A DNA stretch of 40,503 nucleotides from an uncultured bacterium (GTDB lineage: Bacteria; CSSED10-310; CAZUFC01). The notes below the pieces were generated by a model. The model ran no database searches. It saw only the letters and a list, made by a program, of their open reading frames with translations, and had not been told where the DNA came from. How positions within the stretch are numbered: the stretch's first letter is position 1; each line of letters begins with the position of its first letter. The stretch covers positions 1 through 40,503 of the forward strand of contig CAZUFC010000079.1 of NCBI GenBank assembly GCA_964619725.1. The letters run 5' to 3'. Both the position numbers and the translations under genes were made by a program. Positions 15,174-33,640 of the stretch are shown here, piece after piece.

Positions 15174-15187
15174 ATCTTGTAATTCAC

Positions 15188-16006: not shown

Positions 16007-16045
16007 GGCGGTCGATGTAATGCAAGATTGATTAAATTGAAGCCG

Positions 16046-16312
16046 TTATCGAATCATGTTCGGAAAACTTGTGAGAAGGTTGTGAGCGAATCTCACTATA
16101 AGACCTGTCGTCCAGGAAGCCAGAGCGACTATCAGGCCATATACGACGATTAATTTGGGCACGAAGCTGAGCGTCTGTTCCTGTATCTGCGTAGTGGCCT
16201 GGAACAAACTTACGGCGAGACCCACGATAAGACTGCCCAGGACCGGCGGACCGGATAACATAAGCACCAGTATCAGTGCTTCTTTTGTAATGCGTAGAAC
16301 GAATTCTTCCAT
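16046..16312 (-). CDS. sctS: T3SS export gate SctS (FliQ/YscS family)
   Basis: 'VGLAVSLFQATTQIQEQTLSFVPKL'. Confidence 0.95.
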   Translation of the reverse strand: MEEFVLRITKEALILVLMLSGPPVLGSLIVGLAVSLFQATTQIQEQTLSFVPKLIVVYGLIVALASWTTGLIVRFAHNLLTSFPNMIR

Positions 16313-16357
16313 TTTTTCACCTCATTCCGCCAACGGCAGCAGAGCATCGGCCTGATT

Positions 16358-17125
16358 CTACAGGTAACCCATGATCAGCCCCTTTGTGATGACGTACCAG
16401 CCGTCGACGAGAACGAATAGCAGCAATTTGAACGGCAATGATATCATGGTGGGCGAAAGCATGAACATGCCCATGGACATCAGAACATTGGCGACGACCA
16501 TATCCACGACCAGGAAGGGTACAAATATGATGAACCCTATCTGAAAAGCTTCTTTCAACTCGCTGATCACAAACGCCGGAATAAGCACAGTAGCATCTCT
16601 TTCCTTCAGGTTCTCCCGGTCTTCCTGTTTGCGCATTTTTCTGCCCATGGACAAAAAAAGTCTTCTTTCGTTGGAATGCGAATGCTTGTAAAGAAAATCG
16701 AAAATAGGCGTTTTACCCTTTTTCACGGCTTCACCCAGCAAATCCAGGCTGGCTTCTGAAAGCAGCGGTTTACCCGTCCGTTGCTGTACCGTTTCCTGTG
16801 TTTCCCGGTATACTTCCAGTCCTACCGGAACCATAATATGAATAGTCAGAATAACGGCCAATCCTATGACTACCTGGTTGGGCGGCACCTGCTGAGTCCC
16901 CAGAGCGCTGCGGATAATCGACAACACCACCGCTATTTTGACGAAGGAAGTTATCATGATGAGCACGAACGGAACCAGGGCCAATGCGCCCAAAGCAGCC
17001 ATAAGAAGCAGGGGACGCTGACTGACCTGTACAGGATATGCCGCTGCTTCAGTCGTCTCGATCAAAAGGAACCACTCGCACACCAGGACCGCCAAAACTA
17101 CAGGAAAACGGAGCCTTCTATTCAT
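16358..17125 (-). CDS. sctR: T3SS export gate SctR (FliP/YscR family); start placed at MNRRLRF overlapping the upstream stop
   Basis: 'TSFVKIAVVLSIIRSALGTQQVPPN', 'LIPAFVISELKEAFQIGF', 'ISLPFKLLLFVLVDGW'. Confidence 0.95.
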   Translation of the reverse strand: MNRRLRFPVVLAVLVCEWFLLIETTEAAAYPVQVSQRPLLLMAALGALALVPFVLIMITSFVKIAVVLSIIRSALGTQQVPPNQVVIGLAVILTIHIMVPVGLEVYRETQETVQQRTGKPLLSEASLDLLGEAVKKGKTPIFDFLYKHSHSNERRLFLSMGRKMRKQEDRENLKERDATVLIPAFVISELKEAFQIGFIIFVPFLVVDMVVANVLMSMGMFMLSPTMISLPFKLLLFVLVDGWYVITKGLIMGYL

Positions 17126-17600
17126 TCTCTTTTTTCCTCTGCTCGCTTTTAAGTTTGTTGAAAATACGGCTGAATCCCGAACCTGGTTCATCTAAAGAGG
17201 TGACTGACGCTCCCGGCGAATCCTCTATGTTCTCCTCTTCCATCTCCCAGCGGCTTAATACGCTGATATTCTGTTCTGATGTTCCGATCAGCATCTCCTC
17301 TTCGCCTATCCTGATGATGTGAAGGTTCTTCCTGGGCTCCAGACGTTTCGATTCCATTATCCTTATACGCCCGAACCTGAATTGTCCCGCTCCGTATATT
17401 TTCGGCAGCACGATTTTCAAGATGATATAAATCAGAAGTATGACTATGAACAACGCTATAATCGTGGTAATGATCTGCGACAGGAACCCGTTGTCGTCAA
17501 AGTTCGTTCCAAACCCTGAAGCATCTGCAGGAGTAAAAGTCGGGACGGCTGTTTTCGCCGATACATTGAAAAACATCTGTAAAAAATTCACAATGAACAT
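17118..17600 (-). CDS. fliO: FliO-like export-gate assembly protein
   Basis: TM helix followed by 'IRIMESKRLEPRKNLHIIRIGEEEMLIGTSEQNISVL'; lies directly before the fliP/sctR homologue. Confidence 0.8.
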   Translation of the reverse strand: MFIVNFLQMFFNVSAKTAVPTFTPADASGFGTNFDDNGFLSQIITTIIALFIVILLIYIILKIVLPKIYGAGQFRFGRIRIMESKRLEPRKNLHIIRIGEEEMLIGTSEQNISVLSRWEMEEENIEDSPGASVTSLDEPGSGFSRIFNKLKSEQRKKENE

Positions 17601-17606
17601 CCCGGA

Positions 17607-19214
17607 TCAACCTGAACCTAATTTAATGATCTTTACGCCGATTTTGCCCTGGAGGTCCACCAGCTTGCCCTTTGCGATTACCTTGTCGTCTGCGGTAAGG
17701 TCCACCGGCTCGATCGGACTCTTCTCAAGACTCATCGTCTCACCCTCCTTCAATCTTATAATATCCCGCAAGGGCATCTGAATGCGTCCCAATTCTACTA
17801 CAACCGGAACCGTTACATTATCCGCAACGAACCGCGCCGTCTCCGTCATCTTTAACGCACTTTCCCCCGTTACTCTTTCCTTCTTTTTTTCCTCTATTTC
17901 TTCGCTCATGCTCCTCTCTCCTTTGGAGAACCTCTCTTTAAGGGTCACATTTATCTCTCCCGAATTTACAGCAGCATCAATCGAATACCCCCCGTTCGAC
18001 CGGGCTCCGCAATATAATGTCGCCTCACCGCTTAATCCATCTTCTCCGAAAAACATCTTCGTGTTTTCAACCGCAATGATGTTGTCTCTTTCAAGCGAGG
18101 ATATCTCCACGAGAGATAAAGGAGTATATCCCATATCGCATATAAGCGGAATCCTTATCTCATCGATCGATCGAAAGCGCGACATTAAGAATTCATTCTC
18201 CTTTGCCGTATCGCTGTAACCCGTCTCGCCGGGGATCAAATCATATTTTTCAAGCAGAAGGTCAGGTAAAAAAAGCTTCACGAACCCGGACGCCCTGCCG
18301 AGATTGACCGTGTAATCAGACTCTATGTAGGGCACAGAAAAATCAACCTCCTTGTCCAGCTCGCTTCTGCTTCGGATCATCTTCTCCAGCCGGGGATGTA
18401 CCGGCGGATTCGATCCGAATTTCTCCGTCAGTAAATTGAGGATTTTTAATACTAAAAATTGCACTGCGCCTTCTTCCATGGCCGTGAAAGCACGAAATAC
18501 CCTGACGTCGCCGCTGCCTCCCAGCAGATGATCATACAGCGCAAACCCCAGCATCAGGTCGATTTCTATAAAACACTTATGCTCAACCGGATGAAGATTG
18601 AATACCAATACGCTGCAGGGTTCCGATATCGTTTCTCTTATCCCCTTATACAACTTCTGTTTTCGACGGGTCAGCCTGATTCCTATCGATTCCGTCTTTT
18701 TCTCTTCAACCTCAATCGTCAACGATAACTTCGTATTCGCCAGGGTTATCTCATCTCCGTTCGATATTTCCTGGTCCTCCCCCGGACGCAAGATTCTGCC
18801 GTTTAAATATGTATTGTTGACGGAATTTAAATCAGACAGAAAAAATTTATCCGCTTTTCTGTATACCTTGGCGTGCTTACCCGAAATATAACCGTCAGGT
18901 ATTCTGAAATCAGTATCTTTGTGTCTGCCTAAAATAATCTCTTCGCTGTCGAATTTCTTCTCGATTATTTCACGTATCCGACCCGGTTTCTTTAATACCC
19001 CGCTTAAGCCTATCCTGTATTTTTTTTCCACTGCAGGAGGAAAAATCCCCTGCAACATCTCTTTTATCTCAGAGTAACATTCTCCGGGAAATATTGAATC
19101 CGGCAGATACCGAAAAACCTTGCCTGTCAGCTCAGCTTCTGCAGCATCTACTTTTTCCAGAGGTTTCAGTATAAAGTGTGCAGCCTCTTTCGTTTTCTTT
19201 TTCCGTTCATCCAT
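17607..19214 (-). CDS. sctQ: C-ring/sorting platform protein SctQ (FliM-FliN-like) with inserted FHA domain
   Basis: FHA at about aa 65-168; FliM-middle-like 'DHLLGGSG...RAFTAMEE'; two SPOA-like segments, the last 'VVVELGRIQMPL...IAKGKLVDLQGKIGVKI'. Confidence 0.88.
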   Translation of the reverse strand: MDERKKKTKEAAHFILKPLEKVDAAEAELTGKVFRYLPDSIFPGECYSEIKEMLQGIFPPAVEKKYRIGLSGVLKKPGRIREIIEKKFDSEEIILGRHKDTDFRIPDGYISGKHAKVYRKADKFFLSDLNSVNNTYLNGRILRPGEDQEISNGDEITLANTKLSLTIEVEEKKTESIGIRLTRRKQKLYKGIRETISEPCSVLVFNLHPVEHKCFIEIDLMLGFALYDHLLGGSGDVRVFRAFTAMEEGAVQFLVLKILNLLTEKFGSNPPVHPRLEKMIRSRSELDKEVDFSVPYIESDYTVNLGRASGFVKLFLPDLLLEKYDLIPGETGYSDTAKENEFLMSRFRSIDEIRIPLICDMGYTPLSLVEISSLERDNIIAVENTKMFFGEDGLSGEATLYCGARSNGGYSIDAAVNSGEINVTLKERFSKGERSMSEEIEEKKKERVTGESALKMTETARFVADNVTVPVVVELGRIQMPLRDIIRLKEGETMSLEKSPIEPVDLTADDKVIAKGKLVDLQGKIGVKIIKLGSG

Positions 19215-19283
19215 ATCGCTTGTCGCTTCCTCGTTTGTCCGGCGAGAATGCTGAATCAGGACAATAAATTATTAACTCATCGT

Positions 19284-20204
19284 CTACGCTTCGTAATCCG
19301 TGCTGCTGATCTTCCCTATCCTGGGCTTCGACGGCGGGATTGGCGATAAAGGCTCCTCTGTCGATTCAGCGCCCTCATCCGCTATTCCCGATATGTCGAT
19401 GATCTCCGTTTCACTCTCTTGCGAACCGCCCTGACCCGAAGCATCAGAACCAACGGCAACGCTGAGCTGCGCCAAATCGAGACCTTTGCCGTCAAGCGCT
19501 TTCACCAGTTCTGCTGCTTTGGTCTGTATGATTTCCTTAACCGCATCCGATTCGGTGATGAAATGAACATTTATCTCTCCGTTTTTATCCGCGCTGACGT
19601 TCAACTTCAATCCGCCTAGAAACTCCGAGTTAAACTGGAATTGCATCTCGGTCTGACCCGCTTTATTCACTCCTACCCTCACCTGATCAACGATACTGGT
19701 CAATATCTCATCAGGAATGATCTTCGATGCAGAAACATTTGAAATATCCATGGGTTGCGGACCCGTTTGAGGGCTCTGCTGCACAGCATCAGGAACCCCC
19801 TGGAATTTGACTTCCCGGTCCAACTTTTTCTTTAAATTATCGACCGGCGGTCCTTCGCTTCCCTTTAATTTCAAATCTTTCATACTCTTTTTATCCGGGA
19901 ATAACTTGCCCGGTCCCCTCTTCTGATCCGGCGGCTCAAATTTCTTCGGCATCTTCTTGGGACGTTTGGAGTCCGGAAAATAGGAAAAAGCTTCTTCCGG
20001 CTTCTCCCCCCTCCGTTCGCCTTCTTTCTCCTTTACCGGCTCTTTGGTTGACTTCGATTGAGACGAACCGGACTTGTCCGGTTCCTCCTTTTTTTTGCCG
20101 AAAATTTCAGAAAACGATCTTTCAGCCGAAGAAGCGGAATGATCCTTTTTTTCCATTGAATCGCCGATTTTCTTTGATCCTCCGGCGACCGGTTTTATAT
20201 CCAT
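19284..20204 (-). CDS. sctP: Length-control ruler SctP/FliK-like protein
   Basis: Disordered N-terminus; FliK-C-like 'EMQFQFNSEFLGGLKLNVS...INVHF..ESDAVKEII....ELVKAL..KGL'; O-P-Q synteny. Confidence 0.78.
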   Translation of the reverse strand: MDIKPVAGGSKKIGDSMEKKDHSASSAERSFSEIFGKKKEEPDKSGSSQSKSTKEPVKEKEGERRGEKPEEAFSYFPDSKRPKKMPKKFEPPDQKRGPGKLFPDKKSMKDLKLKGSEGPPVDNLKKKLDREVKFQGVPDAVQQSPQTGPQPMDISNVSASKIIPDEILTSIVDQVRVGVNKAGQTEMQFQFNSEFLGGLKLNVSADKNGEINVHFITESDAVKEIIQTKAAELVKALDGKGLDLAQLSVAVGSDASGQGGSQESETEIIDISGIADEGAESTEEPLSPIPPSKPRIGKISSTDYEA

Positions 20205-20251
20205 TGCTTTCTCCTTTTTAAGATAGCTGGTAAACCGTCACGGAACTCCAT

Positions 20252-20749
20252 TCAAGTATCCTTTTCCTTAAATGAATAAAGCACATTGCCTATTTCATCC
20301 AGGGTTTTCTGTTCCTCCCGCGCCTGTTCCTTTTTTATTTTACTGATCCATTTCTCCCGATGCATCTCTATCGCTTTGACGGCTTTCACCGCTTCTACCA
20401 GCAAACCTTTTGCTTCAGCAACATCATCCTTCGCTTTATTAATCGCGTCGTCCTGCTCTCTGATCTCCTGAATCTTATCGCTTTCATCGTCTCGTAATCG
20501 CTCCAGGTAACGATCATACTGCTTCAGTTTCTGAAGCGTGAGCTTTCCTGAACCAGGATTCGCCTTCTCTTTTTTGGCTCTTTTCTGTTCTTCGATTATC
20601 TGATTGAGTTCCTGCTTTAATTGATCCTTGTATTCAATTTGCTTCTGTAATTCGTCTTCTTTTTTTTTCAGATATTCCAGCGCTTCATCGCGTTTTCTTT
20701 CGCGCATCTCCAAAACAGGCTGCAATTTATAAGGCGGTAATTTAGCCAT
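20252..20749 (-). CDS. sctO: Stalk protein SctO/FliJ-like
   Basis: Coiled coil with 'YKLQPVLEMRE' and 'REEQKTLDEIG'; directly after the ATPase; SD GGAG before ATG at 20749. Confidence 0.8.
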   Translation of the reverse strand: MAKLPPYKLQPVLEMRERKRDEALEYLKKKEDELQKQIEYKDQLKQELNQIIEEQKRAKKEKANPGSGKLTLQKLKQYDRYLERLRDDESDKIQEIREQDDAINKAKDDVAEAKGLLVEAVKAVKAIEMHREKWISKIKKEQAREEQKTLDEIGNVLYSFKEKDT

Positions 20750-20835
20750 GCGCCTTCTCCCGGATTGAAGCATCCTTTTCAATGCAGCGTGAAATAACCG
20801 AAGATGTGATCATGACGAATTCTCTTTCCTTGAGC

Positions 20836-22185
20836 CTAATTTTTAAACAGGTCGTTCAACTTGATGACGGTATCGTCAAAAGTAATTTGTTCGAAAACCT
20901 CCTGTTTCAGAAAAGAATTAACCGCGTCGATCTTTTCAATGGCATAGTCGATATTCTTGTCCGACCCTTTCTTGTATGCGCCGATATTAATTAAATCTCT
21001 CTCTTTTTCATAAACAGCCAGGACTTCTCTTAATTTTCTGGCGGCCCGGCTGTGTTCGTCATTGACAATTTCCGACATAACGCGGCTGACGCTTTCCGAA
21101 ACGTCGATAGCGGGATAATGATTTCTGGCGGCTAAATTTCGCGACAAAATGATATGCCCGTCAAGAATACCTCTCACTTCATCGGCTACCGGCTCGTTCA
21201 TGTCGTCTCCCGCCACGAGTACGGTATAAAAAGCGGTTATGGAGCCTTTATCCGAATTGCCCGATCTTTCAAGCAGGCGGGGCAGTTCAGAAAACACGGA
21301 TGGAGTATATCCGGCTCTGGCCGGGGGTTCGCCGACGGCCAGGCCCACTTCTCTCTGGGCACGGGCGAATCTCGTAACGGAATCCATCATGAGCATAACT
21401 TTTTTGCCTGCATCCCTGAAATATTCGGCGATGGAAGTAGCGACATGAGCGGCTTTCAATCTGACAAGAGCGGGTTGATCTGACGTGGCGACGACTACGA
21501 CAGACTTTTTCATGCCTTCTTCGCCGAGATTGCCTTCCAGAAAATCGCGAACTTCCCGTCCCCTTTCTCCGATCAGCGCGATAACGTTAATTTCGGCTTC
21601 CGTGTTTCTGGCGATCATTCCCATAATGGTGCTCTTGCCCACGCCTGCAGCCGCAAAAAATCCTATTCTTTGACCTTCTCCGACGGTCAGCGTGCCGTCT
21701 ATCGCACGAATGCCTACAGCCAGCGTGTTTTTTATCCGGCGCCTTTTCAGAGGATCGGGAGGCGGACTGTGCACAGGATACTCCACCGTATCCTGCAGCT
21801 CTCCCTTCTCTTCAACGTCGAGCGGCTCTCCCAATCCGTCCAGGACCCTTCCCAGCAGACTCTCTCCTACTTTTATAGTCATTGAATTGCCCGTCGGGAG
21901 AATCTCGCTGTCCGTACCTATGCCCTCCAATTCGCCCAGAGGCATCAACATGACGTGATCGCCTTTGAATCCGATGACTTCGGCTTTCAGCGGCTTTCCC
22001 GCATTGTGCGACTGTATCAGACATAGTTCGCCGACCCTTACTCCGGGAACAGCCGCTTTAATCACCAGTCCCACAATTTCCACGACGCGGCCCCGCGCTT
22101 TCAACGGACTTATGTCGTCTATAATCCTTAAATACCTGCTTAATTCAATTTTGTTCCCGGATTGAGCCACTGCCTCTCTCCTCAA
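20836..22185 (-). CDS. sctN: T3SS ATPase SctN (FliI/YscN family); start may be GTG at 22170
   Basis: Walker A 'AAAGVGKST', 'LIGERGREV', '[10 protein letters not shown]', '[10 protein letters not shown]'. Confidence 0.97.
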
Positions 22186-22952
22186 ACGCTTGTGTTCTTC
22201 ACGGCCAACAATTTCCTGGCCAAAAATATGACGATGGCCCAGGGGACCAAAAAGAGAACTACGCCGCCGATCAGCAGCATCCGCAAGGGTTTTTTTGAAT
22301 TCTGAGTCAACGTCAGAGGCCCGAAATGAAAAAGTTTTTCCGATTCTCTTTTTTCTATGATTTTTTCCGTTGAAATTATAATAACGTTGGAAGTCGTCAG
22401 GTTCTCTACAGCCCTGGACACCAGGCTCTTTATCTCTTCATCGCTATAAGGCTTTTCTCCTCCCGGCTCAGGCCTGTATTTGATCAAAACCGATGCCGTA
22501 GGGTCCGGTATGGTTTCATCCGGCAAATAGGCATCCTTGTTGGGCATCACAACATGAACGCGAACATCCACCACACCGTCAATTCTTTCTATCGTTTCAG
22601 CTATTTCACCCTGATAAGCCTGAATGAGTTTCGCTTGTTCCTCCAGTTGGGTGGGCATAAGACCGGATTGCTGAAAAACGTCTTTGAATCCCGTCCCCTT
22701 GGGTCGCGGCAGGTCCATATCCAGTAATACTTTTCTCGCCTTTACCGCATCCGCTTCATCGATAAGTATCGTCCAGGTACGGTTTCTGTCATCACCCGCT
22801 GCTGCCTTTTCGCCTTTTATGCCGTACTGGTCCAGTATCACCAGAATCTCATTCGCTTCCCGCTCCTCAAGATCGTGCAATAATTCTATCTTGCAACCCG
22901 TCAGGAATAAAACCGCCGTCGCCAGAAAAATAAGCGCCGCCCGTCGCCTCAT
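22182..22952 (-). CDS. sctJ: Inner-membrane ring lipoprotein SctJ (YscJ/PrgK family)
   Basis: Lipobox 'FLTGC', '[10 protein letters not shown]', '[12 protein letters not shown]', 'PTASVLIKY', C-terminal TM; SD AAGGAG before ATG 22952. Confidence 0.92.
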
Positions 22953-23125
22953 CCTAGCTCCTTTCATAAATAAACCTTTCAACTGTCTTAAATGAGGAAT
23001 AAAAATGTCGACTTTTTATCCCGCAATTACCTCTTGAATTAAACTTTTCCGTTAACTTCCCCGTCAATTCACGCATGCTCCGCAATTGATTCCCTCAGAA
23101 GAAAAGACGGATTTCTCCTGCACCG

Positions 23126-23548
23126 TCATACCTGAGTATTCATCGTCGTTTTTATGCCCGAAACAGCCTGCTCGACCACTTTGCTGGTCAATTCCAGCTC
23201 CTGAGTGAACCGATAGACGCCTGTCTGAATGACCATGAGTTCCTGGGGAGAAAATTTTTTCCCGCTCAGCGCCATGTCCATGATCTTATCCACCTTGTGC
23301 TGTCCCTCGACTATGCCGTTAAGAACATCCTTGATGGAATTGCCTCTGGAAATGGACATATCGACCTGTCCCACTTCAGTCGCCTGCATCGATTCCGTCT
23401 TTCCCATCTCAGCATTCTGATCCATCATCTGGTTCATCACCTGGTCGAACTTGCCGACTTGTTCCGATGCTTTTACGCTTTCTTCGGCCAGCTTCTTGGC
23501 TATATTGGCAGCCGTCTGGCCGGCGCCTGTAATCATTGGTCCCGCCAT
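23126..23548 (-). CDS. sctI: Inner rod SctI-like protein
   Basis: 'SPQELMVIQ...ELELTSKVVEQ...TTMNTQ' YscI-like C-terminus; directly upstream of sctJ. Confidence 0.7.
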   Translation of the reverse strand: MAGPMITGAGQTAANIAKKLAEESVKASEQVGKFDQVMNQMMDQNAEMGKTESMQATEVGQVDMSISRGNSIKDVLNGIVEGQHKVDKIMDMALSGKKFSPQELMVIQTGVYRFTQELELTSKVVEQAVSGIKTTMNTQV

Positions 23549-23589
23549 GACGATACCCTCCTTTCTGCAAAAATGCAGAGTTATTCCGG

Positions 23590-24297
23590 TTAAGTGACTT
23601 CGTCCGGCGTCTTAACGCCGAAACCCGCCAGTATTTCTTTCAATTCCATCAATATTTTCGTGTGCAGTCGCGACAGCCAGCTTTTCGACAAATTCATAAT
23701 GCGTCCGATTTCTATAAGGGTCTTATTCTCATAATAATACATGTAAATAAACCGTCGATCCTGGTCTTTCAACCTGTCCAGCATCTTCCTGATTAGTTCT
23801 CGCTTCTGTATCTTACCGTAAGCCCTCTCAGGATCGACGTCGTTCTGATCCTTCGGCTCAAGCTCGACCGCCGCATCCAGAGAAATAATGTAGATTGGAA
23901 TCAATGCGGAAATGACCTGTTCCAATTCATTCGCTTCCTCTTCAGCCCCCATGTCAGAAGGACTCTTGCCGCTTGAAACGAACTCGTTCATAAACTCATT
24001 AGCCGATTCCTCAAATTTCTGTTTGGCGTATTGATTGCGATTGAGCCAGCCGAATTCCCTTAAACCGTCGAATATGGCGCCTCTGATCCTGTAATAAGCG
24101 AACGTTTTAAAACTTATTCCCTTGGCCGGATCGAAACGTTCCGCAGCTTGAACCAGTCCGAGGTGACCATAAGCGACCAAATCTTCTTTGTCGACCCAAG
24201 GAGCGATCGTTTTGGAAATATTGGAGGCTAACTTCTGCACGTAGGTTATATTTTTCTTTATCAGAATCTCTTTTTGCGTAGCGGCGACGGATTTCAT
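23590..24297 (-). CDS. fliA: FliA/WhiG-family (sigma28) RNA polymerase sigma factor
   Basis: 'GLVQAAERFDPAKGISFKTFAYYRIRGAIFDGLR'; region 4 'TLIEIGRIMNLSKSWLSRLH'. Confidence 0.85.
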   Translation of the reverse strand: MKSVAATQKEILIKKNITYVQKLASNISKTIAPWVDKEDLVAYGHLGLVQAAERFDPAKGISFKTFAYYRIRGAIFDGLREFGWLNRNQYAKQKFEESANEFMNEFVSSGKSPSDMGAEEEANELEQVISALIPIYIISLDAAVELEPKDQNDVDPERAYGKIQKRELIRKMLDRLKDQDRRFIYMYYYENKTLIEIGRIMNLSKSWLSRLHTKILMELKEILAGFGVKTPDEVT

Positions 24298-24486: not shown

Positions 24487-27400
24487 TCAACCTCGACGTT
24501 TCTGACCGTCATTTTGATCTCTTCCGTCACTGCCGCCCTGCTCTCGAGAGCCGTCCTCGGTACTTCCCTCAGCAGGTTTTATCCTGGTTTGGGCGATCGG
24601 AATTTCCAGCTTAGCCGTCACCAAAGCTCCGAATCCTCCGGGTAAATTAATTTTTTCTTTATGATCCGGGGCCTGGGTGAAAGAACTGACGGAATGCAGA
24701 TAGGACAGGTAAATGATGTTTTCAGCAGGATTAAATCGGGCAGCCAAGATAAGCGCGGGATAGGGAATGCCGTCGAACAACATGAATCCGCCCGGCGCAA
24801 AACGTCTGACGACAGGTTCCGGCAAACTCCGTGGATAATTCTTCATATTGAAAGAAATGCCGGGCTCTTCAAATTCCCCTTCCGTCGCAAGCGCGGCCTG
24901 AAGCCGCGGCTCTGAAGCGCTTTCTGCTCCTCTCCCGAAAATAGTCAATTTTGCTCCATCCGCAACAGGAACGGTATGAACGGAATATTGTCCCGGCAGA
25001 CCGGGAGTATCCCCAGTCTTCCGATACCCCTTATCAAAATCGCTATCATTGACTTTCCTCTGCGACTTATCCCCTTCCCTGAACTTGAAATCACGTTGAT
25101 TGCTTTCCCGCACTTTGGACGCTTCGCTCTCCGAGAAATAACCTGCAGGAGCCAGGTCAGAAAAAACCGTATCGGGAGGTAACGGCATTACCGCGGGATC
25201 ATCGAAGTCCGGCGAGGCATTTGCCGCATTCATCGCCTGTGCGTCAACCGGTTTGAGCCTCCGGGTGAGGGAGTAGATGAAGTCCTTTGAAAGCTCAATC
25301 AAGCCGGCCTTATCGGCGTCAGTAACGGGATAACCCGCTTCCTGATTGATTCGAATCTTCGGGGCTTCAGTTGGCGATGTCATTGCGGGTGAAGACGATG
25401 CCGGTAAGGTACCCGCTGGAATTATCCCATATAAGCGTTCTCTCAGAGCATGCCCCCTGGGATCAAACCATACGCCCTGCTTGATCAATCCCACCGCCTG
25501 GCTGTCTTCCTGAATGTCGAGAGCCATTTTTTCGAGTGTGGCGACATCCAGCATGCCGGTTTGCTTTAATCCTTTAAAGCTTTGATATGTCATAAGGACC
25601 GTTTTGATTTCATCCGGAGACATTCCGGAAAAAATGTTCTGTATCGATTTCCTTCCGGCGAATCCAAGGACCGGTTCCGTCATGCCGCTCGCCTGATTTC
25701 CTTCGACTGATTTCGCCACGGCCCGGAACAAGACTGCGGGTAAAGCCGCATGCTGCTCAATAATCCGGGCCGCTGCGGGCGTTTTCGACAAATAACTTTT
25801 CAAATTCTGAGGATTCACAGGCAACCGGTCAATCAGATCAAACTTTTCCCTGCCCGTCAGGTCGAACAGGACATTGGAAAAAACCATCCTGCTGATGGGC
25901 GCTCTTCTTATCTTCTGAAGAATCCCGAATGTCTTCATATCCAATATTCCGTCGGAAAATTCCAATCCCAGGTCCTCCTGAACGGCAGTCACGGCGCTCG
26001 ACAACCATTCCGCCGTTCTTTTGCCTCCGTCCATTACCGAAAGACCCATACGCGCTAAAATGTCCCCCATTATTTTTTCGGAAAATTTCAGCGACCGGTC
26101 GTCATATTTTGAGAAAGGAACCTTACGGGCCAGCCCTGACTCAAATGAAAGCAGGGATGCCCCAAGCTCGTCAATCATCACTCCGTCAGGCGTATTTCTT
26201 AACAGTCCTTCTACGGCTCTCATCGTCTGCAGGTCAAGTATTCCGTGTTGCGGCATTCCGAAGGATTTTTGCACGGTTTTTAAAAATCCCTGTATGTTGA
26301 AGTCGCTGCCGGTTTTAAGGTCGACCGGAGTATCGGCTTGAACCGCGTCAATCTGTTGTGACGACAATTTTCTTATCTTCGCCGCCTGACTGAATTTATT
26401 CATGAACAGGTTAACGGTCGAATCGGCAATTTTTCCCCCGCCGCGATACATCGCTTCGATTAAACTCCTGTTCGTCTTCGCATCGCCGCCGGTCAAGAGT
26501 CCATTCAAATCGTTCAAATTCAAACCCGCATGCCTCATTTTGCCCAGTAAGGACAGGACGTCTTTGTTCAATAATGCGTCTGGTTTCAAACCGGTCAATT
26601 TCTTGAATAACCTTATACCTCGCGCGTCGCCTTCAAATCCGGACTCGATTCCCGCTTCTTTCGCAAGCAATGCTATGCGATGCCCATCGATCGGCAGAAG
26701 TTCGTCCCTTATCTCGGTCAGCTTCATTCCATGCCAGGTTCGTGAAACGGCGCCGGCGAAATCATTCAAATCAAGCGCTTTCATTATCTCCGGAGGAAAC
26801 AAAACATTTGCTTCTTTCGTTATTTGCAGGGCTTGCGCCGGCGTTCCCTTTTTTCCTATAATATGTGAAAAATCATTCAGAAAACTCTTTATCGAAACCT
26901 CATCGAAGGCGCCGTACATTCTTGAAATAAAATTTTTTCCTTCCACCGATCTTCCTAACTCGTCCCGGATGGAATCAACAAAAGCAGGAGAAAAAAATCG
27001 CTCCGGCTTCCCTGAACGTGCATCCGGCTTAAACCCGGAGAATTCGGTTGCCCTGGCTCTTTTACCGGTTCCTTCCCGTGAAACAAAACGGTTCTCTGTA
27101 TTTAACCCCCGGCCTGATGTTGCCGGTCCAGCAGCATTCTTGTCTGCGGATTTTTGCAAAACTCTGCCGGTTAATGCCTGCAAAGTTGCCCTGTTCAATC
27201 TCCCGTTCGATTCTAATCCCTCGCTTCGTTGAAATTGCCTCAGCAAAACCGACAGATCACCGTCCGTACCACCGGCTGTTCCGCCTTCCATCAGCAATTG
27301 CCCCACGAAATTTTTCAGTACGGGCCCGAAACGGGAATCTTTCACTTCGACGCCGGCATCACCTGAAATTTCCTGTTTCAAAGGATGCCTTTCCAGGATA

Positions 27401-28494
27401 GGGAATTCAGCCGGATTCGAAACGGGATGCTGCATCTCCTGCAAAAACTGCAGAGTCTCACGGTTTAATACTCCGTCAGCTTTGAATCCGAATTCGCTCT
27501 GCAAAACCATTAAATCGCTTTTAATCCGGCTTACGTCAGAAACATCACGGTTTTCCCTGCCGGCATTCAGATCGGAAGCGGCAGAATCTCCCAGGACAGC
27601 ATTTTTATTCGTCTTTTCTGAATTGTGTTCCAGCCCCCCTAAATTTGACAGCGTCCCTCTCTTGGCCGGCATTTCCGTTAAAACAGTCTCTCCTCGTTCG
27701 CTGGAGATAAACTGCGCTGACTTTTGAGCAATACCTAAACGGGGCAGTATATTCTTTAAAAAATCAATCGTCTCAGTACGTTGACCGGCGGGAAGCTCGT
27801 CTAAATCCGTCAACTGTTCCGACGTTTTCATTACTTCAGGCATTATCAGTTTATCTTTTAAGACGCTTTTCGATCTCATGCCCCTGTTTGTGCTCAGAGG
27901 TTCCCCCCTGATCGAGCCTGACCCGGCAGAATCCCCCAGACTCATGCGCGTATGCACAGGTTTCCCCGACGCCTTTTCTTTGGTCTGGTCCGCTTTCAGG
28001 GCATGGTTTACTACACCTCTGCTCTTCAGTCTTCCCGAAGACTTCTCCCCTGAATCACCTGCAGGATAAGACCCCTTGCGCTTTCCCGAAAATTCTGCCG
28101 AACGCCCTTCTTCTCTGCTTGAAACCTTTTTGTCGCCCGACCAGGTTTTTGACCGCTCGCCGCCGCCAGTCAGACCGCTTCCTTCTTTTCCTTCCGCTGA
28201 TTCGACCTCTGCAGCAATCCTCCCGGACTCCAGTCCGCCGATGCTGTCCAGGAAATTTTCGCGTACGGATGACTCACGTCCCATGAAAATATCTTCCGAA
28301 GAATAACTTTTTGCGGGAATTGACTGTTTAGCCTTGCCGGTACCAGCCCCCTCCGTACCGGTCCTCCCGGTAAGATTTCCCGGACCGGCCCGTTCCTGTA
28401 TTGATTCGGAAGAACCCTCAAGCCCGGAAAGCGCCTTTTTTCCTCCGCGTAAAAAAAGCGGTAACCATTGAATTTTTTGAAAGCGGCCAATCAT
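24487..28494 (-). CDS. Large protein with six peptidoglycan-binding (PG_binding_1-like) motifs, no signal peptide
   Basis: Recurrent '(F/Y)Q...G(L/F)...G.L(D/N)..T...L' motifs; long low-complexity N-terminus. Confidence 0.7.
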   Translation of the reverse strand: MIGRFQKIQWLPLFLRGGKKALSGLEGSSESIQERAGPGNLTGRTGTEGAGTGKAKQSIPAKSYSSEDIFMGRESSVRENFLDSIGGLESGRIAAEVESAEGKEGSGLTGGGERSKTWSGDKKVSSREEGRSAEFSGKRKGSYPAGDSGEKSSGRLKSRGVVNHALKADQTKEKASGKPVHTRMSLGDSAGSGSIRGEPLSTNRGMRSKSVLKDKLIMPEVMKTSEQLTDLDELPAGQRTETIDFLKNILPRLGIAQKSAQFISSERGETVLTEMPAKRGTLSNLGGLEHNSEKTNKNAVLGDSAASDLNAGRENRDVSDVSRIKSDLMVLQSEFGFKADGVLNRETLQFLQEMQHPVSNPAEFPILERHPLKQEISGDAGVEVKDSRFGPVLKNFVGQLLMEGGTAGGTDGDLSVLLRQFQRSEGLESNGRLNRATLQALTGRVLQKSADKNAAGPATSGRGLNTENRFVSREGTGKRARATEFSGFKPDARSGKPERFFSPAFVDSIRDELGRSVEGKNFISRMYGAFDEVSIKSFLNDFSHIIGKKGTPAQALQITKEANVLFPPEIMKALDLNDFAGAVSRTWHGMKLTEIRDELLPIDGHRIALLAKEAGIESGFEGDARGIRLFKKLTGLKPDALLNKDVLSLLGKMRHAGLNLNDLNGLLTGGDAKTNRSLIEAMYRGGGKIADSTVNLFMNKFSQAAKIRKLSSQQIDAVQADTPVDLKTGSDFNIQGFLKTVQKSFGMPQHGILDLQTMRAVEGLLRNTPDGVMIDELGASLLSFESGLARKVPFSKYDDRSLKFSEKIMGDILARMGLSVMDGGKRTAEWLSSAVTAVQEDLGLEFSDGILDMKTFGILQKIRRAPISRMVFSNVLFDLTGREKFDLIDRLPVNPQNLKSYLSKTPAAARIIEQHAALPAVLFRAVAKSVEGNQASGMTEPVLGFAGRKSIQNIFSGMSPDEIKTVLMTYQSFKGLKQTGMLDVATLEKMALDIQEDSQAVGLIKQGVWFDPRGHALRERLYGIIPAGTLPASSSPAMTSPTEAPKIRINQEAGYPVTDADKAGLIELSKDFIYSLTRRLKPVDAQAMNAANASPDFDDPAVMPLPPDTVFSDLAPAGYFSESEASKVRESNQRDFKFREGDKSQRKVNDSDFDKGYRKTGDTPGLPGQYSVHTVPVADGAKLTIFGRGAESASEPRLQAALATEGEFEEPGISFNMKNYPRSLPEPVVRRFAPGGFMLFDGIPYPALILAARFNPAENIIYLSYLHSVSSFTQAPDHKEKINLPGGFGALVTAKLEIPIAQTRIKPAEGSTEDGSREQGGSDGRDQNDGQKRRG

Positions 28495-28545: not shown

Positions 28546-28950
28546 CTAAAGATTCTCTATACTGGAAAGCTGATTAAGGATTTTTGTTATTTTTGAGGTC
28601 ATTTCAGGGTCCTTGCCGACAAAATCTTTAATCCTGTCCTTCATTTCCGATAATCCCTTTTCATCCAGAACTTCAGGCGACAATTTTTCTCTTATTATCC
28701 TGTCCACGGCCAATTCAATGAATTTTTCCCTGCCGGTTTCATCCTGTTCCAGTTTTTTCCCGTCCATTTCCTTTTTTATCGCTTCAAGCAAAGCCGAATC
28801 CATCTTTTTAGCTTCTATTCCCTTTTTATCTTCGACCGCTCCTTTATCTTTTTCCAGGGCGAAATCTTCCGCTTTTTCCGCTTTTTTTCGTTGAATTTCC
28901 CGGATATTTTCCAGATTCCGCGGAGATTTAACCGACGGATCGATCTTCAT
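28546..28950 (-). CDS. Hypothetical T3SS-cluster protein
   Basis: 134-aa helical, charged ORF with SD GAGGTG; co-oriented inside the cluster. Confidence 0.7.
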   Translation of the reverse strand: MKIDPSVKSPRNLENIREIQRKKAEKAEDFALEKDKGAVEDKKGIEAKKMDSALLEAIKKEMDGKKLEQDETGREKFIELAVDRIIREKLSPEVLDEKGLSEMKDRIKDFVGKDPEMTSKITKILNQLSSIENL

Positions 28951-29050
28951 TTTTGCACCTCACATCATACAAAGCATACTGCCTGTTTCAGAAGTAAAAA
29001 ACCTATTATGGCACTGAGATTCGAAAAGCAATCGCTGAAATAGAATGATC

Positions 29051-29452
29051 CTATTCCAATTCTTCATAGAATTGTTTCAGAGACCTGGCAAAATCGCCGA
29101 ACGGTCCCGTGGGGTCATTCCTCAAAGCTTTATTTATCAGCTCTTCTCCTTCATCCTTACGATTGCTGAAATAAAGAAACTCAGCGTATGCGGTTTGAGC
29201 GAAGGGGCTTTCCGGATTGATTTTCAACGCTTTTTTGAAAGATTCTTCGGCTTTGTCCATTTCGTCCCTGGCAAAGTACAGGTTGCCCAGCGCCACCTGA
29301 GGATGCTCCATGTGCGGAATCAGGGGACTCAACCCGGTAAAAACTTTTTCAGCTTCTTCGTCTCGTTTCATATAAGCCAGCAATTGCCCGGCTTCCAGCA
29401 ACATCTTTATCTCATCCGTGCTGATCGGAACTAACGGTTGTGCAGAATTCAC
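29051..29452 (-). CDS. TPR chaperone (YscG/SycD-like)
   Basis: About 3 TPR units; directly downstream of the needle-like gene. Confidence 0.72.
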   Translation of the reverse strand: MNSAQPLVPISTDEIKMLLEAGQLLAYMKRDEEAEKVFTGLSPLIPHMEHPQVALGNLYFARDEMDKAEESFKKALKINPESPFAQTAYAEFLYFSNRKDEGEELINKALRNDPTGPFGDFARSLKQFYEELE

Positions 29453-29501
29453 GATATATACTCCCTTTATCTTGCTGTCTCAGGTCTGTCGTCCATTAAA
29501 T

Positions 29502-29933
29502 CTACTTGATGTTCCTGACGGCTGACATCGTAGCATCATGACGGGCTTTTGATACGTTGGACAATGCGGTATAAGTCATCACCTGCTTCTGAATACGATA
29601 TTGCAGCATCAACATATCCGTCATGCTCATGTCAGGCATATCGCCATCCATCATGTTTCCGTCGCCCGGAAATTCTCCGCCGCCGCCTGCACCCTCAGCG
29701 CCTATGGCATTTCCTGCAGTCGCAGCCGCAGCCCCGGCGCCCATGACGGCAGCCTTTACCACTGTACCGCCCGGAACGAAACCTGCCGCCACGCCTCCGA
29801 CAGTCCCCAGCGTCTTACCAGCAGCCCGCATGAAACTGCCGAACTTTCCGGACGTGCCGGCCGACTGCTGCGCTCTCATATAATCCGCTCTGTTATAAGT
29901 CTGAATTCCTATACGGGATATTGGAGTCGACAT
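29502..29933 (-). CDS. Needle/filament subunit SctF-like protein with Gly/Ala-rich N-terminal extension
   Basis: C-terminal 'MLMLQYRIQKQVMTYTALSNVSKARHDATMSAVRNIK' resembles needle C-terminal helices; SD AAGGAGG before ATG 29933; E-F-G synteny. Confidence 0.62.
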   Translation of the reverse strand: MSTPISRIGIQTYNRADYMRAQQSAGTSGKFGSFMRAAGKTLGTVGGVAAGFVPGGTVVKAAVMGAGAAAATAGNAIGAEGAGGGGEFPGDGNMMDGDMPDMSMTDMLMLQYRIQKQVMTYTALSNVSKARHDATMSAVRNIK

Positions 29934-29992
29934 GATTTTCCTCCTTGAATTGATATTGAGAAAGCCCCAACGGCTTTCGACTTTCATCCCTG

Positions 29993-30019
29993 TTATCGGT
30001 GAAAATATAAAAAAGTTTC
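29993..30019 (-). promoter_or_regulatory. sigma28-type promoter for the needle-like gene
   Basis: GAAACTTT-N11-ACCGATAA versus consensus TAAAGTTT-N11-GCCGATAA. Confidence 0.7.
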
Positions 30020-30050
30020 GCTCAGATTCAAAAACTTCTCCGCAGCTCCC

Positions 30051-30398
30051 CTATTTCTCTTTTATTTCTTCCGTCATAGCTCCCCGGATATTCACCAGTT
30101 CCTGAATCAGAGAAATCGATTTTTCATAAGCCGCGAGAGCCGCTTCAGCTTTTTCGATGATCTCAGGGTCCTTTTCCCGCGTAATGATCTCCTCCAGCTT
30201 CCCGCACGTAGCCTTGTATTTTTCATTGATTAATTCAAAATTCTCGCTCTCGATTAAATTTTCAATAAAATCAAATCCAAGCGAATCGCTCTTTTTGCTG
30301 CCTTCCGGAGGCACATAAGGCCCGCCGACGACACGCGATCCCGCCCTGAACGGTTTCATCTGCTTATCTTTCCCACCGCTATCTTTATCGGCCATCAT
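30051..30398 (-). CDS. Small helical protein in the YscE co-chaperone position
   Basis: 115 aa, C-terminal amphipathic helices, SD GAGGAGG; function inferred from position only. Confidence 0.55.
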   Translation of the reverse strand: MMADKDSGGKDKQMKPFRAGSRVVGGPYVPPEGSKKSDSLGFDFIENLIESENFELINEKYKATCGKLEEIITREKDPEIIEKAEAALAAYEKSISLIQELVNIRGAMTEEIKEK

Positions 30399-30433
30399 TT
30401 CCTCCTCTCGCCCTCAGCCTTTCAGTGCAAGGC

Positions 30434-31087
30434 TTAATTTTTCAAAAGAAATTCCTGTATCGTTTTCAACTGGGTATTCAGTTTTGCGTCAATCTGCCCG
30501 ATCTCCGTATCAATGATACAACCGCCCCGCGGTATGTTCTCATCCCCCCGGAAACTGAGCGATTTAGCACGTCCCAGCATTCCCATCAATTGCTTCTCTT
30601 TCCCGATCAAATACTCCAACTCCCCGGGATGAACCCTGACGATAATCTCCTGCTGCTGCCTGACCGCTCCAACTGCCTGCGTCACTATTTTTAAAATGGT
30701 CCTGGGATTCATCTTCAACTCATAACCGATGATTTTTTTCGCCACTCGCATCGACAACTTGATAATATCTGATTTTCCCTTCTCCAACAGCTTTCCGTAT
30801 TCGCGACGCGCTTCCAGCATGATCGACGTCACTTCCGATTTGCCGGCTTCATATCCCTCTTCGTATCCTCGCTTACGCTCCTCCTCCTTTTCCTCTTCCG
30901 CCTCCCGCTTTATCCTCGCCGCTTCCGACTCCGCCGCTTCCAATAGAGAACGCGCCTTTTCCGCCGCTGAATACATCGCTCCATCGATTATTTTGCCCTT
31001 TCCCGATAATACCTTCTCTATGTCGCCGCGAATATCCGGCTTGCCCTTCTCCTTCTTCCAGTCATCCAAATTTTTGATTATCTTCAT
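30434..31087 (-). CDS. sctL: Stator protein SctL (FliH/YscL family)
   Basis: 'RGYEEGYEAG' GxxxG repeats, 'IIVRVHP', 'RGGCIIDTEIGQIDAKL'. Confidence 0.92.
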   Translation of the reverse strand: MKIIKNLDDWKKEKGKPDIRGDIEKVLSGKGKIIDGAMYSAAEKARSLLEAAESEAARIKREAEEEKEEERKRGYEEGYEAGKSEVTSIMLEARREYGKLLEKGKSDIIKLSMRVAKKIIGYELKMNPRTILKIVTQAVGAVRQQQEIIVRVHPGELEYLIGKEKQLMGMLGRAKSLSFRGDENIPRGGCIIDTEIGQIDAKLNTQLKTIQEFLLKN

Positions 31088-31102
31088 GAACGCCCCCGAT
31101 TA

Positions 31103-31660
31103 TTACTCTGCTTGCCTTGCCTCTTCTAACGACCGGCCTTTTCCATGCGGCCCCGATATTCTTTCAATATATACTTTTTTAAAAGAAAAGCGAATATGAT
31201 TGATCACTTCTTTCGGCACGTCCGCCAGCGAAGAAACGCCCGGCAGACGCTTCTTTATCTTCGGCGGAAGCTCCTGCAAAATGCGCCTGGAAATTTCCTC
31301 CGGCATGTAACGCAGCATCAATGCTATCGTTCTCGGCGACTCGTTCTTCAATATATCCAGAATGACGTCCGCATTATCCAGCTTTATCCCCGCATATTCC
31401 CCGGCAAATAAATACTTCTTTACGCTGCTCAATACCATGTCGAACCTTTTTTTCGCAGGAAGCTGCGATAAATCCTCTATCTGTTTTTCCAGATACGAGG
31501 CATCCTCTTCAGGAAGATATTTCAGCAAACCTTTGTACCGCTCCTTTTCATACAGCAAAAGCAGAAGCAGCAAAGTGTTTTGTCTTTTTACCGACTCATC
31601 CATTCGTCGTCCGATCGAGGATAAGAAATTCTCCCGGATTAAAGCGCTTTGAATCCTCAA
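31103..31660 (-). CDS. Truncated FliG-like protein (N and middle domains only); start may be ATG 31603
   Basis: 'LKNESPRTIALMLRYMPEEISRRILQELP' matches the FliG-M 'EHPQTIALIL..L....A..IL..LP' pattern; precedes fliH/sctL as fliG does. Confidence 0.7.
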   Translation of the reverse strand: MRIQSALIRENFLSSIGRRMDESVKRQNTLLLLLLLYEKERYKGLLKYLPEEDASYLEKQIEDLSQLPAKKRFDMVLSSVKKYLFAGEYAGIKLDNADVILDILKNESPRTIALMLRYMPEEISRRILQELPPKIKKRLPGVSSLADVPKEVINHIRFSFKKVYIERISGPHGKGRSLEEARQAE

Positions 31661-31671
31661 ACTCTTCTTTA

Positions 31672-31699
31672 ATCATAAAATCATAACTCAAATTGTCAA
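31672..31699 (-). promoter_or_regulatory. sigma70-type promoter at the head of the T3SS cluster
   Basis: TTGACA-16 nt-TATGAT on the minus strand. Confidence 0.6.
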
Positions 31700-31885
31700 G
31701 CCTGTTGAAAAAATGCACGCGGCGCCGACGTCTTAACTTTCTCGAACGGGAACAGTATCGGGCAGTGTTCATTATCCTCCGATACAGCAAGTTTTTCCTT
31801 TTTTTTTGACATTTATCTTTTTTTCCGTAAATTATGCTAACAGTGTGAAGTTTAAAGGGATCAACTTAACAAAGGAGGGAAACTA

Positions 31886-33640
31886 TTGAATATCTTTGAA
31901 GCGCTGAAGCGCATCCGGTTAAATTATTTATGGTTTCTGGCGGTCATTCTGATCGTAAGCGGTCAGGTTCATGCCGTTCCGGGAATGATCAACTACCAGG
32001 GAAAAGTCGAAGTGGATGATGTACCTTTTACGGGTACCGGGTATTTTCATTTCGCCATCGTCCATAACGACACGGTATACTGGACCAATGACGGGAATGA
32101 CCCTGTGTTGACGGACGTCGAGCTTGAGGTCATGAACGGACTTTACCATGTCATGCTCGGTCACACGGGAGGCATGGTCCCGATTCCCTCATCCGTTTTT
32201 GAAAACGATGAGCTTTATTTAAGGGTCTGGTTCGATGACGGCGTGACGGGTATGCAACAGCTCGTTCCGGACCAGATGATCAGCAGTACGAGCTATGCTT
32301 TTCAGGCAGCAGACGTCTATGACCAGGATATAAATCCAGCCAGCGTCAGCATCACCGGATATGCAAAGGGAATGGTCATTAATGCTGATGGCCAGTGGGT
32401 CGGCGATCCAACAGGTCTGACCGGTCCTCAGGGCGATACCGGGCCGATGGGGCCGCAGGGCGATACAGGACCGATGGGTCCCCAGGGCGATACCGGGCCG
32501 ATGGGGCCGCAGGGCGACACAGGACCGATGGGACCGCAAGGCGACACAGGACCGATGGGACCGCACGGCGACACAGGACCGATGGGACCGCAAGGCAATA
32601 CCGGGCCGATGGGTCCCCAGGGCGATACAGGACCGATGGGACCGCAGGGTAATACCGGACCGGTGGGACCGCAGGGCGACACAGGACCGATGGGACCGCA
32701 AGGCGACACAGGACCGATGGGACCGCACGGCGATACCGGACCGATGGGGCCGCAGGGCGATACCGGACCGATGGGGCCGCAAGGCGATACAGGGCCGATG
32801 GGGCCGCAAGGCGATACAGGGCCGATGGGGCCGCAAGGCGACACAGGGCCTACTGGTCCCATTGCCGGTTCAGATATGCAGCTCATCTACAACGACGGCG
32901 GAATTGCGGGCGGCGCTCAGATTTACTATGACGACACATCACATTTTCTCGGAGTCGGAACTTCAAGCCCAGCCAGAAAACTGCACATATCTGAGGCCTT
33001 AAGGCTTGAACCCTCTTCGGCTCCATCAAATCCTTCTAATGGGGATATGTATTTCGACGTGACCGGCGCCCTTTGCTTCCGGGTCGACGACGCATGGACC
33101 AAGCTCGCAGGCGACGGAATTTGCGGAATGATTCTATATGACGATTTTGAAGATAATTCAATCAATACAGCTCTCTGGTATCCCTATACCGCCTACGGAG
33201 GACAGACAATGGAGACAAATGGTCAGTTGCAGACATGGGGTCATACGGGAGGCTGGACTGGCCTTGGAACTGTGGAAACGGTCCTGCTCAAGCAAGGATG
33301 GAAATTTGAACTCGCCGAAGCTTATCAGAATGGCGGACCCGGTTGCCAGGGATGGCACATCCGCGCGATCAACAGCGCTGACGGAAACAATATTGAAATA
33401 TTGAATAACGTCACATCAGGCTGCACAAATCCGCCGAATTTCGGAGATACCGCTGGAACGTACATTGTTCACGTCGATACGGACGCCGATCTAATCAATA
33501 TCTACAAGAACGACATCTTTTTGCGAAGTCTCTCAGCACAAGGATCAACCGAATTCAAAATTCATTTTCGCTGCGATAATGTTTATGGCTCAGGTAACTA
33601 CAGCCACCTGTTTCTGGAAAACATGTGGTGCGTCGATTAA
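31886..33640 (+). CDS. Secreted collagen-like fibre/adhesin protein
   Basis: SD AAGGAGG with TTG start; signal peptide; 'INYQG' N-terminal domain; Gly-X-Y tract; fibre-type '[13 protein letters not shown]'; beta-rich C-terminal domain. Confidence 0.85.
32423..32854 (+). repeat. 16 x 27-bp coding tandem repeat (GPQGDTGPM)
   Basis: Counted directly: 432 nt = 16 units with mostly synonymous variation. Confidence 0.95.

Follow-up and report, generated by a model that had tools for sequence, protein, structure and literature searches.

The window analysed here is a stretch of 40,503 nucleotides from an uncultured bacterium, and its minus strand, from position 31660 down to 14115, holds a non-flagellar type III secretion system (T3SS) cluster recognised by Pfam and NCBIfam scans of 22 ORFs. 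The components found among these ORFs are SctJ, SctL, SctN, SctO, SctP, SctQ, SctR, SctT and SctU, together with FliO and a FliA-like sigma factor. At one end of the cluster lies a short FliG-like gene (31103..31603, minus strand), recognised by Pfam FliG_M and an AF2 model, which encodes 166 residues from an ATG and terminates with a stop codon at 31105..31103. The enclosing ORF, 31103..31660(-), is real and can be read either as 185 residues from a TTG at 31660 or as 166 residues from the ATG at 31603. The ATG is favoured as the start because alignments with homologues begin at residue 1 and P0001, the database record, contains 166 residues. The possible 19-codon extension from the TTG (31604..31660(-)), with homologues and P0001 beginning at the ATG, is probably a 5' leader rather than coding. 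Residue numbers given below follow the 166-residue form unless 185-residue numbering is stated. A sigma-70-like promoter match, TTGACA-16-TATGAT, is located at 31672..31699(-) and agrees with the consensus at 11 of 12 positions, as a consensus match only. The reading frame of the short gene is intact, and a 9,344-bp contig from X1, which is probably the source run, covers positions 30400-31900 with 0 differences. Similarly, pieces from X3 cover most of the short gene with 0 differences and leave the junction with sctL unbridged, while an X2 contig covers sctL up to 31097, also with 0 differences; among X1, X2 and X3, only X1 bridges the junction. A look for RNA runs returned none.

The gene that follows is the sctL/fliH homologue (30434..31087(-), 217 aa; FliH 74.7 bits, T3SS_SCTL 37.7 bits), which starts 15 nt past the stop of the short gene. 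Four small genes come after sctL (28546..30398(-)), encoding proteins of 115 aa and 161 aa, a TPR chaperone-like protein of 133 aa and a protein of 134 aa. The first three of them, at 30051..30398, 29502..29987 and 29051..29452 (the TPR gene), stand in an order like that of yscE-yscF-yscG. The 161-aa protein (29502..29987(-)) is rich in Gly and Ala and has no Pfam or NCBIfam match; its C-terminal helix resembles needle or rod subunits. A 1335-aa protein with repeated peptidoglycan-binding domains (24487..28494(-)) separates the sctL block from the sigma/sctI/sctJ block, the latter comprising a FliA-like sigma factor and a weak SctI-like protein (23126..24297(-); Pfam, NCBIfam) and an SctJ-type inner-ring lipoprotein of 266 aa (22182..22982(-); YscJ_FliF 99.1 bits, TIGR02544 153.3 bits). 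These are followed by the SctN ATPase (20836..22185(-)), which shares 57.8% identity with YscN, and by SctO (YscO-like), an SctP/FliK-like protein, SctQ, FliO, SctR, SctT and SctU (14115..20782(-); Pfam), the gap in this last region where sctS is expected being outside the ORF scan. The FliO homologue (17118..17600(-), Pfam 42.9 bits) thus sits in a cluster of non-flagellar type, and the related genome G005 has one too. No MotA/MotB or other stator family was detected among the 31 window ORFs scanned, and no secretin was found in the window. Two further genes border the cluster: a divergently transcribed gene at 31886..33640(+) encodes a 584-aa protein with a long collagen-like GDTGPMGPQ repeat, and a 1213-aa protein combining Ser/Thr kinase, AAA and TPR regions (10317..13958(-)) adjoins the T3SS core genes.

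The bin that contains the window comprises 9.17 Mb in 344 contigs, with 90.9% completeness and 6.5% contamination. Its contig C7 encodes a flagellar FlhA and a canonical FliG whose torque-helix motif is intact; the open frame of this FliG is 339 aa long, and counting from its ATG gives 338 aa. The placement of the short gene directly before sctL in a cluster of non-flagellar type, as originally proposed, is accompanied by a separate, canonical 338-aa FliG elsewhere in the same bin. A second FlhA/SctV of 706 aa is not part of the cluster but lies on contig C16 (G000:C16:26176-30817; L036 7177-11818), where a TPR chaperone-like gene and a 477-aa protein with a DUF1521 stretch come before it. DUF1521 is a domain known in a secreted rhizobial T3SS substrate.

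The short protein is a relative of FliG that lacks the C-terminal domain and ends where FliG-C would begin, in agreement with the original prediction. Pfam FliG_M matches it over residues 98-156 in 185-residue numbering (E 1.3e-9, 38.6 bits against a cut-off of 25), and the middle (ARM) domain extends from about residue 70 to residue 152 (31148..31396(-)). The predicted FliG-M-like segment is likewise borne out, the motif ESPRTIALMLRYMP (E88-S-P-R91; 31331..31342(-), read from 31342 to 31331) aligning with the EHPQ of canonical FliG. The E and P of EHPQ are retained as E88 and P90, while H126 is replaced by S and Q128 by R. Within the short clade described below the fourth position of the motif is variable (R, A, A, T and F). 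The position of R160, the mapping of which is uncertain, is variable too. The protein stops about 15-25 residues past the M domain, and, with the stop codon at 31105..31103 and the sctL ATG at 31087, there is no room for a C domain. An AF2 model built from a 37-sequence alignment is compact, with a pLDDT of 85.4; compared with 48,161 representative chains, its top eight matches are all FliG, and its M domain superposes on solved FliG-M structures with an rmsd of 1.9-2.5 Å. The equivalog profile for FliG, NCBIfam TIGR00207, scores below its cut-off (27.4 against 226.7 bits), and so does Pfam MgtE_N (16.3 against 25.9 bits). With FliG_M above its cut-off, a protein matching MgtE_N or FliG_C only is not what was found. 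Identity to the canonical FliG of the same bin is 24% (E 0.007), and a word-based homologue search with the single short protein as query recovered only the protein itself.

The N part, residues 1-69 (31397..31603(-)), contributes four helices akin to those in the first half of FliG_N, as indicated by hhalign and the AF2 model, and bears a clade-conserved LLLLL..(F/Y)EKE....LLKYL motif. For residues 1-65 the structure searches gave no clear match. The FliG-N-like start that had been predicted stands at the level of the family, in the hhalign comparison and for the first half of the domain only; the Pfam FliG_N match on the short protein itself was rejected as a cross-match, since it falls on the M stretch.

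By its sequence the short protein is a member of a divergent, unnamed FliG-like family, here labelled ESPR after its motif. A HMMER search of 1.84 billion representatives returned 100 matches at E up to 1e-3, 86 of which are at least 300 aa long. Most carry ES/TPR.I..ILRYLP near residue 88, whereas the lowest-ranking matches include a few canonical FliGs, with EHPQ near residue 127; in the short protein, as in the family, an ESPR-type motif at about residue 88 precedes ILRYLP...LP...LP. In the source databases the members are nameless or termed 'hypothetical protein', although JGI calls one short member 'flagellar motor switch protein FliG'. The E of the motif is kept in 75 and the P in 71 of 76 full-length members. 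A quick tree, computed without bootstrap, separates the ESPR family from canonical FliG with an SH-aLRT value of 99.

Alignment of the family with canonical FliG by hhalign (probability 99.25%, E 5.5e-20) defines what has been kept and what has been lost. Family columns 8-59 correspond to FliG 10-60, that is, to the first half of FliG_N only; about 37 residues of FliG_N are then absent, followed by the N-M helix and the M domain. A further 40 residues or so are absent between M and C (canonical FliG about 195-235), columns 160-240 match the C-terminal domain (FliG 240-319), and about 90 further residues follow. Searched against the PDB, the family profile gives significant matches to FliG chains only, with E down to 2.5e-18. 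The FliG_C-like domain and the extension of about 90 aa are missing from the short protein and from the four other members of its clade. The four charge positions of the torque helix (R281, D288, D289 and R297 in E. coli naming), which were mapped via the bin's own FliG, are not conserved in the 76 full-length members, the D289 position being R in 25 and A in 18. The family has thus given up the stator signature. The expected loss of stator contact consequently stands as far as the C domain is absent from the window's protein, but it does not set this gene apart, since conserved torque-helix charges are missing from the family as a whole.

The short form is shared by five proteins of 166, 154, 154, 161 and 153 aa, two of which were added by a profile search with three short sequences. 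The four other proteins are 27-35% identical to the window's protein; at 20 positions all five are invariant, and their ends, past a conserved F...Y motif, lie no more than about 20 residues apart. In a 106-row tree of the shared N+M columns, computed by a quick method without bootstrap and after P0075, P0098 and P0100 were dropped before alignment, they form one clade with an SH-aLRT of 93 (an earlier 99-row tree gave 91 for three short sequences). L034, an independent metagenome contig of 3,010 bp, encodes a 154-aa short gene whose stop lies 14 nt before an sctL homologue, followed by homologues of the window's 115-aa and 161-aa genes in the same order as in the window. The truncation is old and conserved, not a recent accident. 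P0004, P0012, P0034 and P0037 were considered as further members and rejected, as they run beyond the M domain and then break off, and so look like fragments; the sub-295-aa matches P0068, P0072, P0075, P0079 and P0083 were left out of the one-by-one inspection. A three-sequence alignment search of genome contigs and of metagenome contigs for related loci returned nothing. Within the phylum, the short form occurs in one of 14 genomes, the window's own, and the clear orthologues, in G002 (337 aa) and G004 (333 aa), are both full length. Whether homologues share the truncation, a point raised with the original prediction, thus receives a divided answer: a clade of five does, with the same gene order on L034, but 86 of the 100 matches are full length. 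A third state is seen in G005 (C29; L032 479..1249), where a 256-aa relative occupies the same slot and gene order as in the window; it lacks the N part, begins near an HPDWI/ERPQ motif and has no Pfam match. Its architecture and length are SctK-like. Since G005 has the same gene order with a different truncation, the component is plastic and might be dispensable.

The FliG-like gene is found directly upstream of sctL/fliH in the window, in G002, G004 and G005, and on L020, L023 and L034. The order in G002 and G004 is sigma, SctI-like (scanned in G002 only), SctJ, FliG-like, SctL, SctN, SctO and SctP. Their FliG-like gene therefore sits between sctJ and sctL, which is the yscK slot when compared with yscI-J-K-L of pYV. 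A four-sequence alignment search fetched four named MAG contigs, and Pfam was run on two of them, L020 and L023. FliG-like proteins of 330 and 321 aa are encoded on L020 (uncultured Pseudomonadota) and L023 (Myxococcota), respectively, in the order TPR, SctJ, two small genes, sigma, one small gene, FliG-like, FliH, SctN, SctO, FliK-like, FliM and FliN, and L021 (Bdellovibrio) and L022 ('bacterium') present a similar pattern judged from ORF sizes alone. By gene order, this arrangement on Myxococcota and Bdellovibrio MAGs (TPR-SctJ-..-sigma-..-FliG-like-FliH-SctN-SctO-FliK-FliM-FliN) can be likened to the 'Myxo' needle-less non-flagellar T3SS (PMC3459982) and to the T3SS* of M. xanthus (PMC12075869). 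Abby & Rocha (2012) describe the Myxo systems as lacking FliG (PMC3459982). Canonical profiles would easily miss the divergent ESPR family.

The presumed partner of the short protein is an SctQ-like fusion of FHA, FliM-middle and FliN domains, 535 aa in length (17607..19214(-); Pfam, NCBIfam). Inside the Pfam FliM stretch, between the FHA and FliN domains, this protein carries LLGGSGDV, and the GGSG motif that the partner had been said to keep is indeed present in the FliM-like domain as G232-G235 (18510..18521(-)). Orthologues of the fusion measure 548 aa in G004 and 533 aa in G005, and GGxG is found in four of six aligned SctQ/FliM-like proteins, with degenerate versions in G004 and G005. 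The FHA domain that injectisomes have at this interface is part of SctD. On the membrane side, SctJ displays only about 10 residues beyond its C-terminal membrane helix, thus leaving no FliF-like tail for the N part of the short protein to hold. Elsewhere in the window, the gene at 3975..5153(+) encodes a protein of 392 aa in which two FHA/YscD-cytoplasmic-like domains are accompanied by an acidic linker and only one membrane helix, at the C terminus; the protein has no periplasmic domain and is SctD/CdsD-like on the cytoplasmic side only. The kinase protein at 10317..13958, together with the FHA domains, suggests control by phosphorylation.

With moderate confidence, the short protein is best explained as a functional, naturally short ESPR member, consisting of half of the N domain and the M domain, from a family that replaced canonical FliG in non-flagellar T3SSs in the SctK slot, and serving as an M-domain adaptor to the FliM-like ring protein. 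The binding partners and the adaptor role are inferred by analogy. The M (ARM) domain would use the ESPR surface to dock onto the GGSG loop in the FliM-like domain of the FHA-FliM-FliN protein, in the way that FliG-M engages FliM-M in flagella, while the clade-conserved N-terminal helices may connect the pod with either the membrane ring or an FHA domain. Torque would not be generated, the stator-contacting domain being absent here and its conserved charges already lost in the full-length relatives. Two published observations fit the adaptor reading: the FliM-like N-terminal domain of SpaO binds OrgA (PMC9907115), and in Chlamydiaceae a FliF fused to a FliG-M domain is proposed to bind SctQ (Bergeron 2016, PMC4768692).

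A different function for the same N+M protein is rather unlikely, although several features of the locus speak for it. The protein might act as a regulator or assembly factor that caps or chaperones the FliM-like (or an FHA) domain and times the assembly of the sorting platform, perhaps under nearby Ser/Thr-kinase and FHA signalling. Such a role would agree with the FHA domain of the partner, with the presence of the kinase-AAA-TPR protein and of the tail-anchored double-FHA protein in the window, and with an SctJ tail too short for a FliF-type anchor. Head-to-tail FliG contacts are known from flagella, and without the C domain contacts of this type cannot form. The short gene nevertheless keeps the conserved structural slot before sctL. 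A structural part is what its relatives in this position point to, since they are FliG-like proteins of full length whose clusters encode FliM and FliN separately. It is also quite improbable that the gene is one half of a split gene, with the C domain supplied in trans by another protein and the full FliG-like function kept. The C part could sit on unassembled DNA, given a bin that is 90.9% complete, and sctL is followed by several small proteins that belong to no known family. However, an HMM of the family's C part finds the canonical flagellar FliG alone among the 113,111 six-frame ORFs of the bin, Pfam FliG_C gives nothing in the 31 window ORFs scanned beyond a weak cross-match on the M domain, and on L034 the short gene is followed by sctL and the same small genes.

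The proposal that the gene is a recent truncation or a decaying, pseudogene-like remnant of a full-length member, without a function of its own, is already largely refuted and has very little probability left. It draws on the predominance of homologues of at least 300 aa, on the full-length orthologues in G002 and G004 and on the different truncation in G005. Against it stand five diverged short proteins that form one clade with a common end point and 20 invariant residues, the intact frame with a strong promoter-like site upstream, a compact and confident AF2 model, and L034, where the short gene again stops 14 nt before sctL, so that at least that one is no assembly fragment. Equally implausible is a flagellar cross-talk in which the protein is not a T3SS part but a decoy or brake acting on the organism's own flagellar FliM or FliF. 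The bin does have flagellar FliG and FlhA on C7, and the N and M domains of FliG are its FliF- and FliM-binding parts. The short gene, however, opens the T3SS operon at a distance of 15 nt from sctL, a linkage conserved on L034; the protein is only 24% identical to the bin's FliG, and the ESPR family co-occurs with FliM-like genes of its own.

Compared with FliG, the short protein is homologous over the first half of N and over M, with C also represented in the full-length family members, and its gene, like fliG, is located just upstream of a fliH/sctL homologue. In contrast, FliG has a complete N domain that holds FliF's C-terminal tail, of which the short protein has half, and a C domain with a charged torque helix, which the short protein lacks and which has no conserved charges in its full-length relatives. 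FliG is, in addition, encoded with flagellar genes, whereas the short gene belongs to a SctJ/SctN/YscO-type cluster without stator genes in the scan. The Chlamydiaceae fusion resembles the short protein in presenting a FliG M-like domain without C in a non-motile T3SS setting. In that fusion, however, M is joined to a membrane ring protein, while in the window M belongs to a free protein with its own N part. NF004606 scores 17.2 bits on the short protein against a cut-off of 297, over profile positions 294-334 only, and the protein is a non-member without any ring or membrane part. A putative Chlamydiota SctK (A0A0U5EPG3), encoded between sctJ and sctL, is reported in the SPfast preprint (10.1101/2025.03.14.643159) to be similar in structure to both FliG and SctK Pfam families. 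It expresses the same bridging idea as the full-length ESPR family, the two being compared by description only, but its C-terminal lobe is the part reported there to bind SctQ, and the window's protein has no C part at all. These two, the Chlamydiaceae fusion and the SPfast preprint, are the only instances of a FliG-like part of a non-flagellar T3SS that the literature searches brought up.

SctK (YscK/PscK/OrgA/MxiK) occupies the same slot as the ESPR genes, sctI-sctJ-X-sctL in G002 and G004, and its presumed role, linking the ring to SctQ, is the one also presumed for the short protein; on the other hand, SctK lacks the N part that the short protein has, and there is no sequence signal between the two. 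A 2014 review gives the flagellar counterpart of SctK only as 'FliG (?)' (PMC4045390), and SctK is presented as a novel fold in a preprint (bioRxiv 10.1101/2020.09.22.308627). The profile comparison proposed with the original prediction relates the family to FliG at a probability of 99.25% and to the YscK relatives at 2.2% (E 0.021, not significant, over 36 columns), the YscK alignment used for hhalign being shallow, with Yersinia and Aeromonas sequences only. Those 36 columns pair family 245-280 with YscK 141-176, which is roughly the register that the ends of the structural alignment would lead one to expect. Pfam YscK/OrgA_MxiK gave no match on the short protein at E up to 0.1, and a PF06578 search matched none of 401 genomes, the controls likewise remaining without a match, so that this search carries no information. 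SctK is absent from the best 50 structural matches of the short model. For the full-length G002 protein, a model (pLDDT 90.1, pTM 0.85) has PscK as its best non-FliG chain, by the VIA aligner only; in Foldseek, PscK is not among the best 50 matches of this model, and only FliG comes near significance (E 6e-4 to 2e-2). The PscK-like span comprises M, C and the extension (residues 73-324 of the G002 model), and the short protein has the first third of it. As most of this span is missing, the window's gene is a side branch rather than an intermediate between FliG and SctK. The transition originally proposed for the gene itself thus has to be given up for the window's protein, although the idea fits the full-length members of the family.

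It is possible, if doubtful, that the ESPR family represents a surviving link between FliG and SctK, in which one small phylum keeps three decay states in the same slot, namely the full N-M-C-extension form (G002 and G004), a form of about 256 aa without the N part (G005) and the N+M form of the window. If this is true, SctK, published as a novel fold, would be a remodelled FliG M+C, and the window's clade would have arrived independently at a minimal solution, the contact with the ring having passed to an FHA domain that is fused to the FliM-like protein. The ESPR family is a more interesting object than the short gene, since it may connect FliG and SctK: it is FliG by sequence, lies in the sctK slot and has PscK as its best non-FliG structural match by the VIA aligner, which makes the FliG/SctK question testable. 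The family also corrects the view, found in PMC3459982, that early-type non-flagellar T3SSs lack FliG. What is new at the locus itself is a conserved short variant inside an unnamed FliG-derived family of non-flagellar T3SSs. The window's clade is a natural deletion experiment, a machine keeping only the FliM-docking half, and it reveals the portion of the rotor protein that is still indispensable after rotation has been lost.
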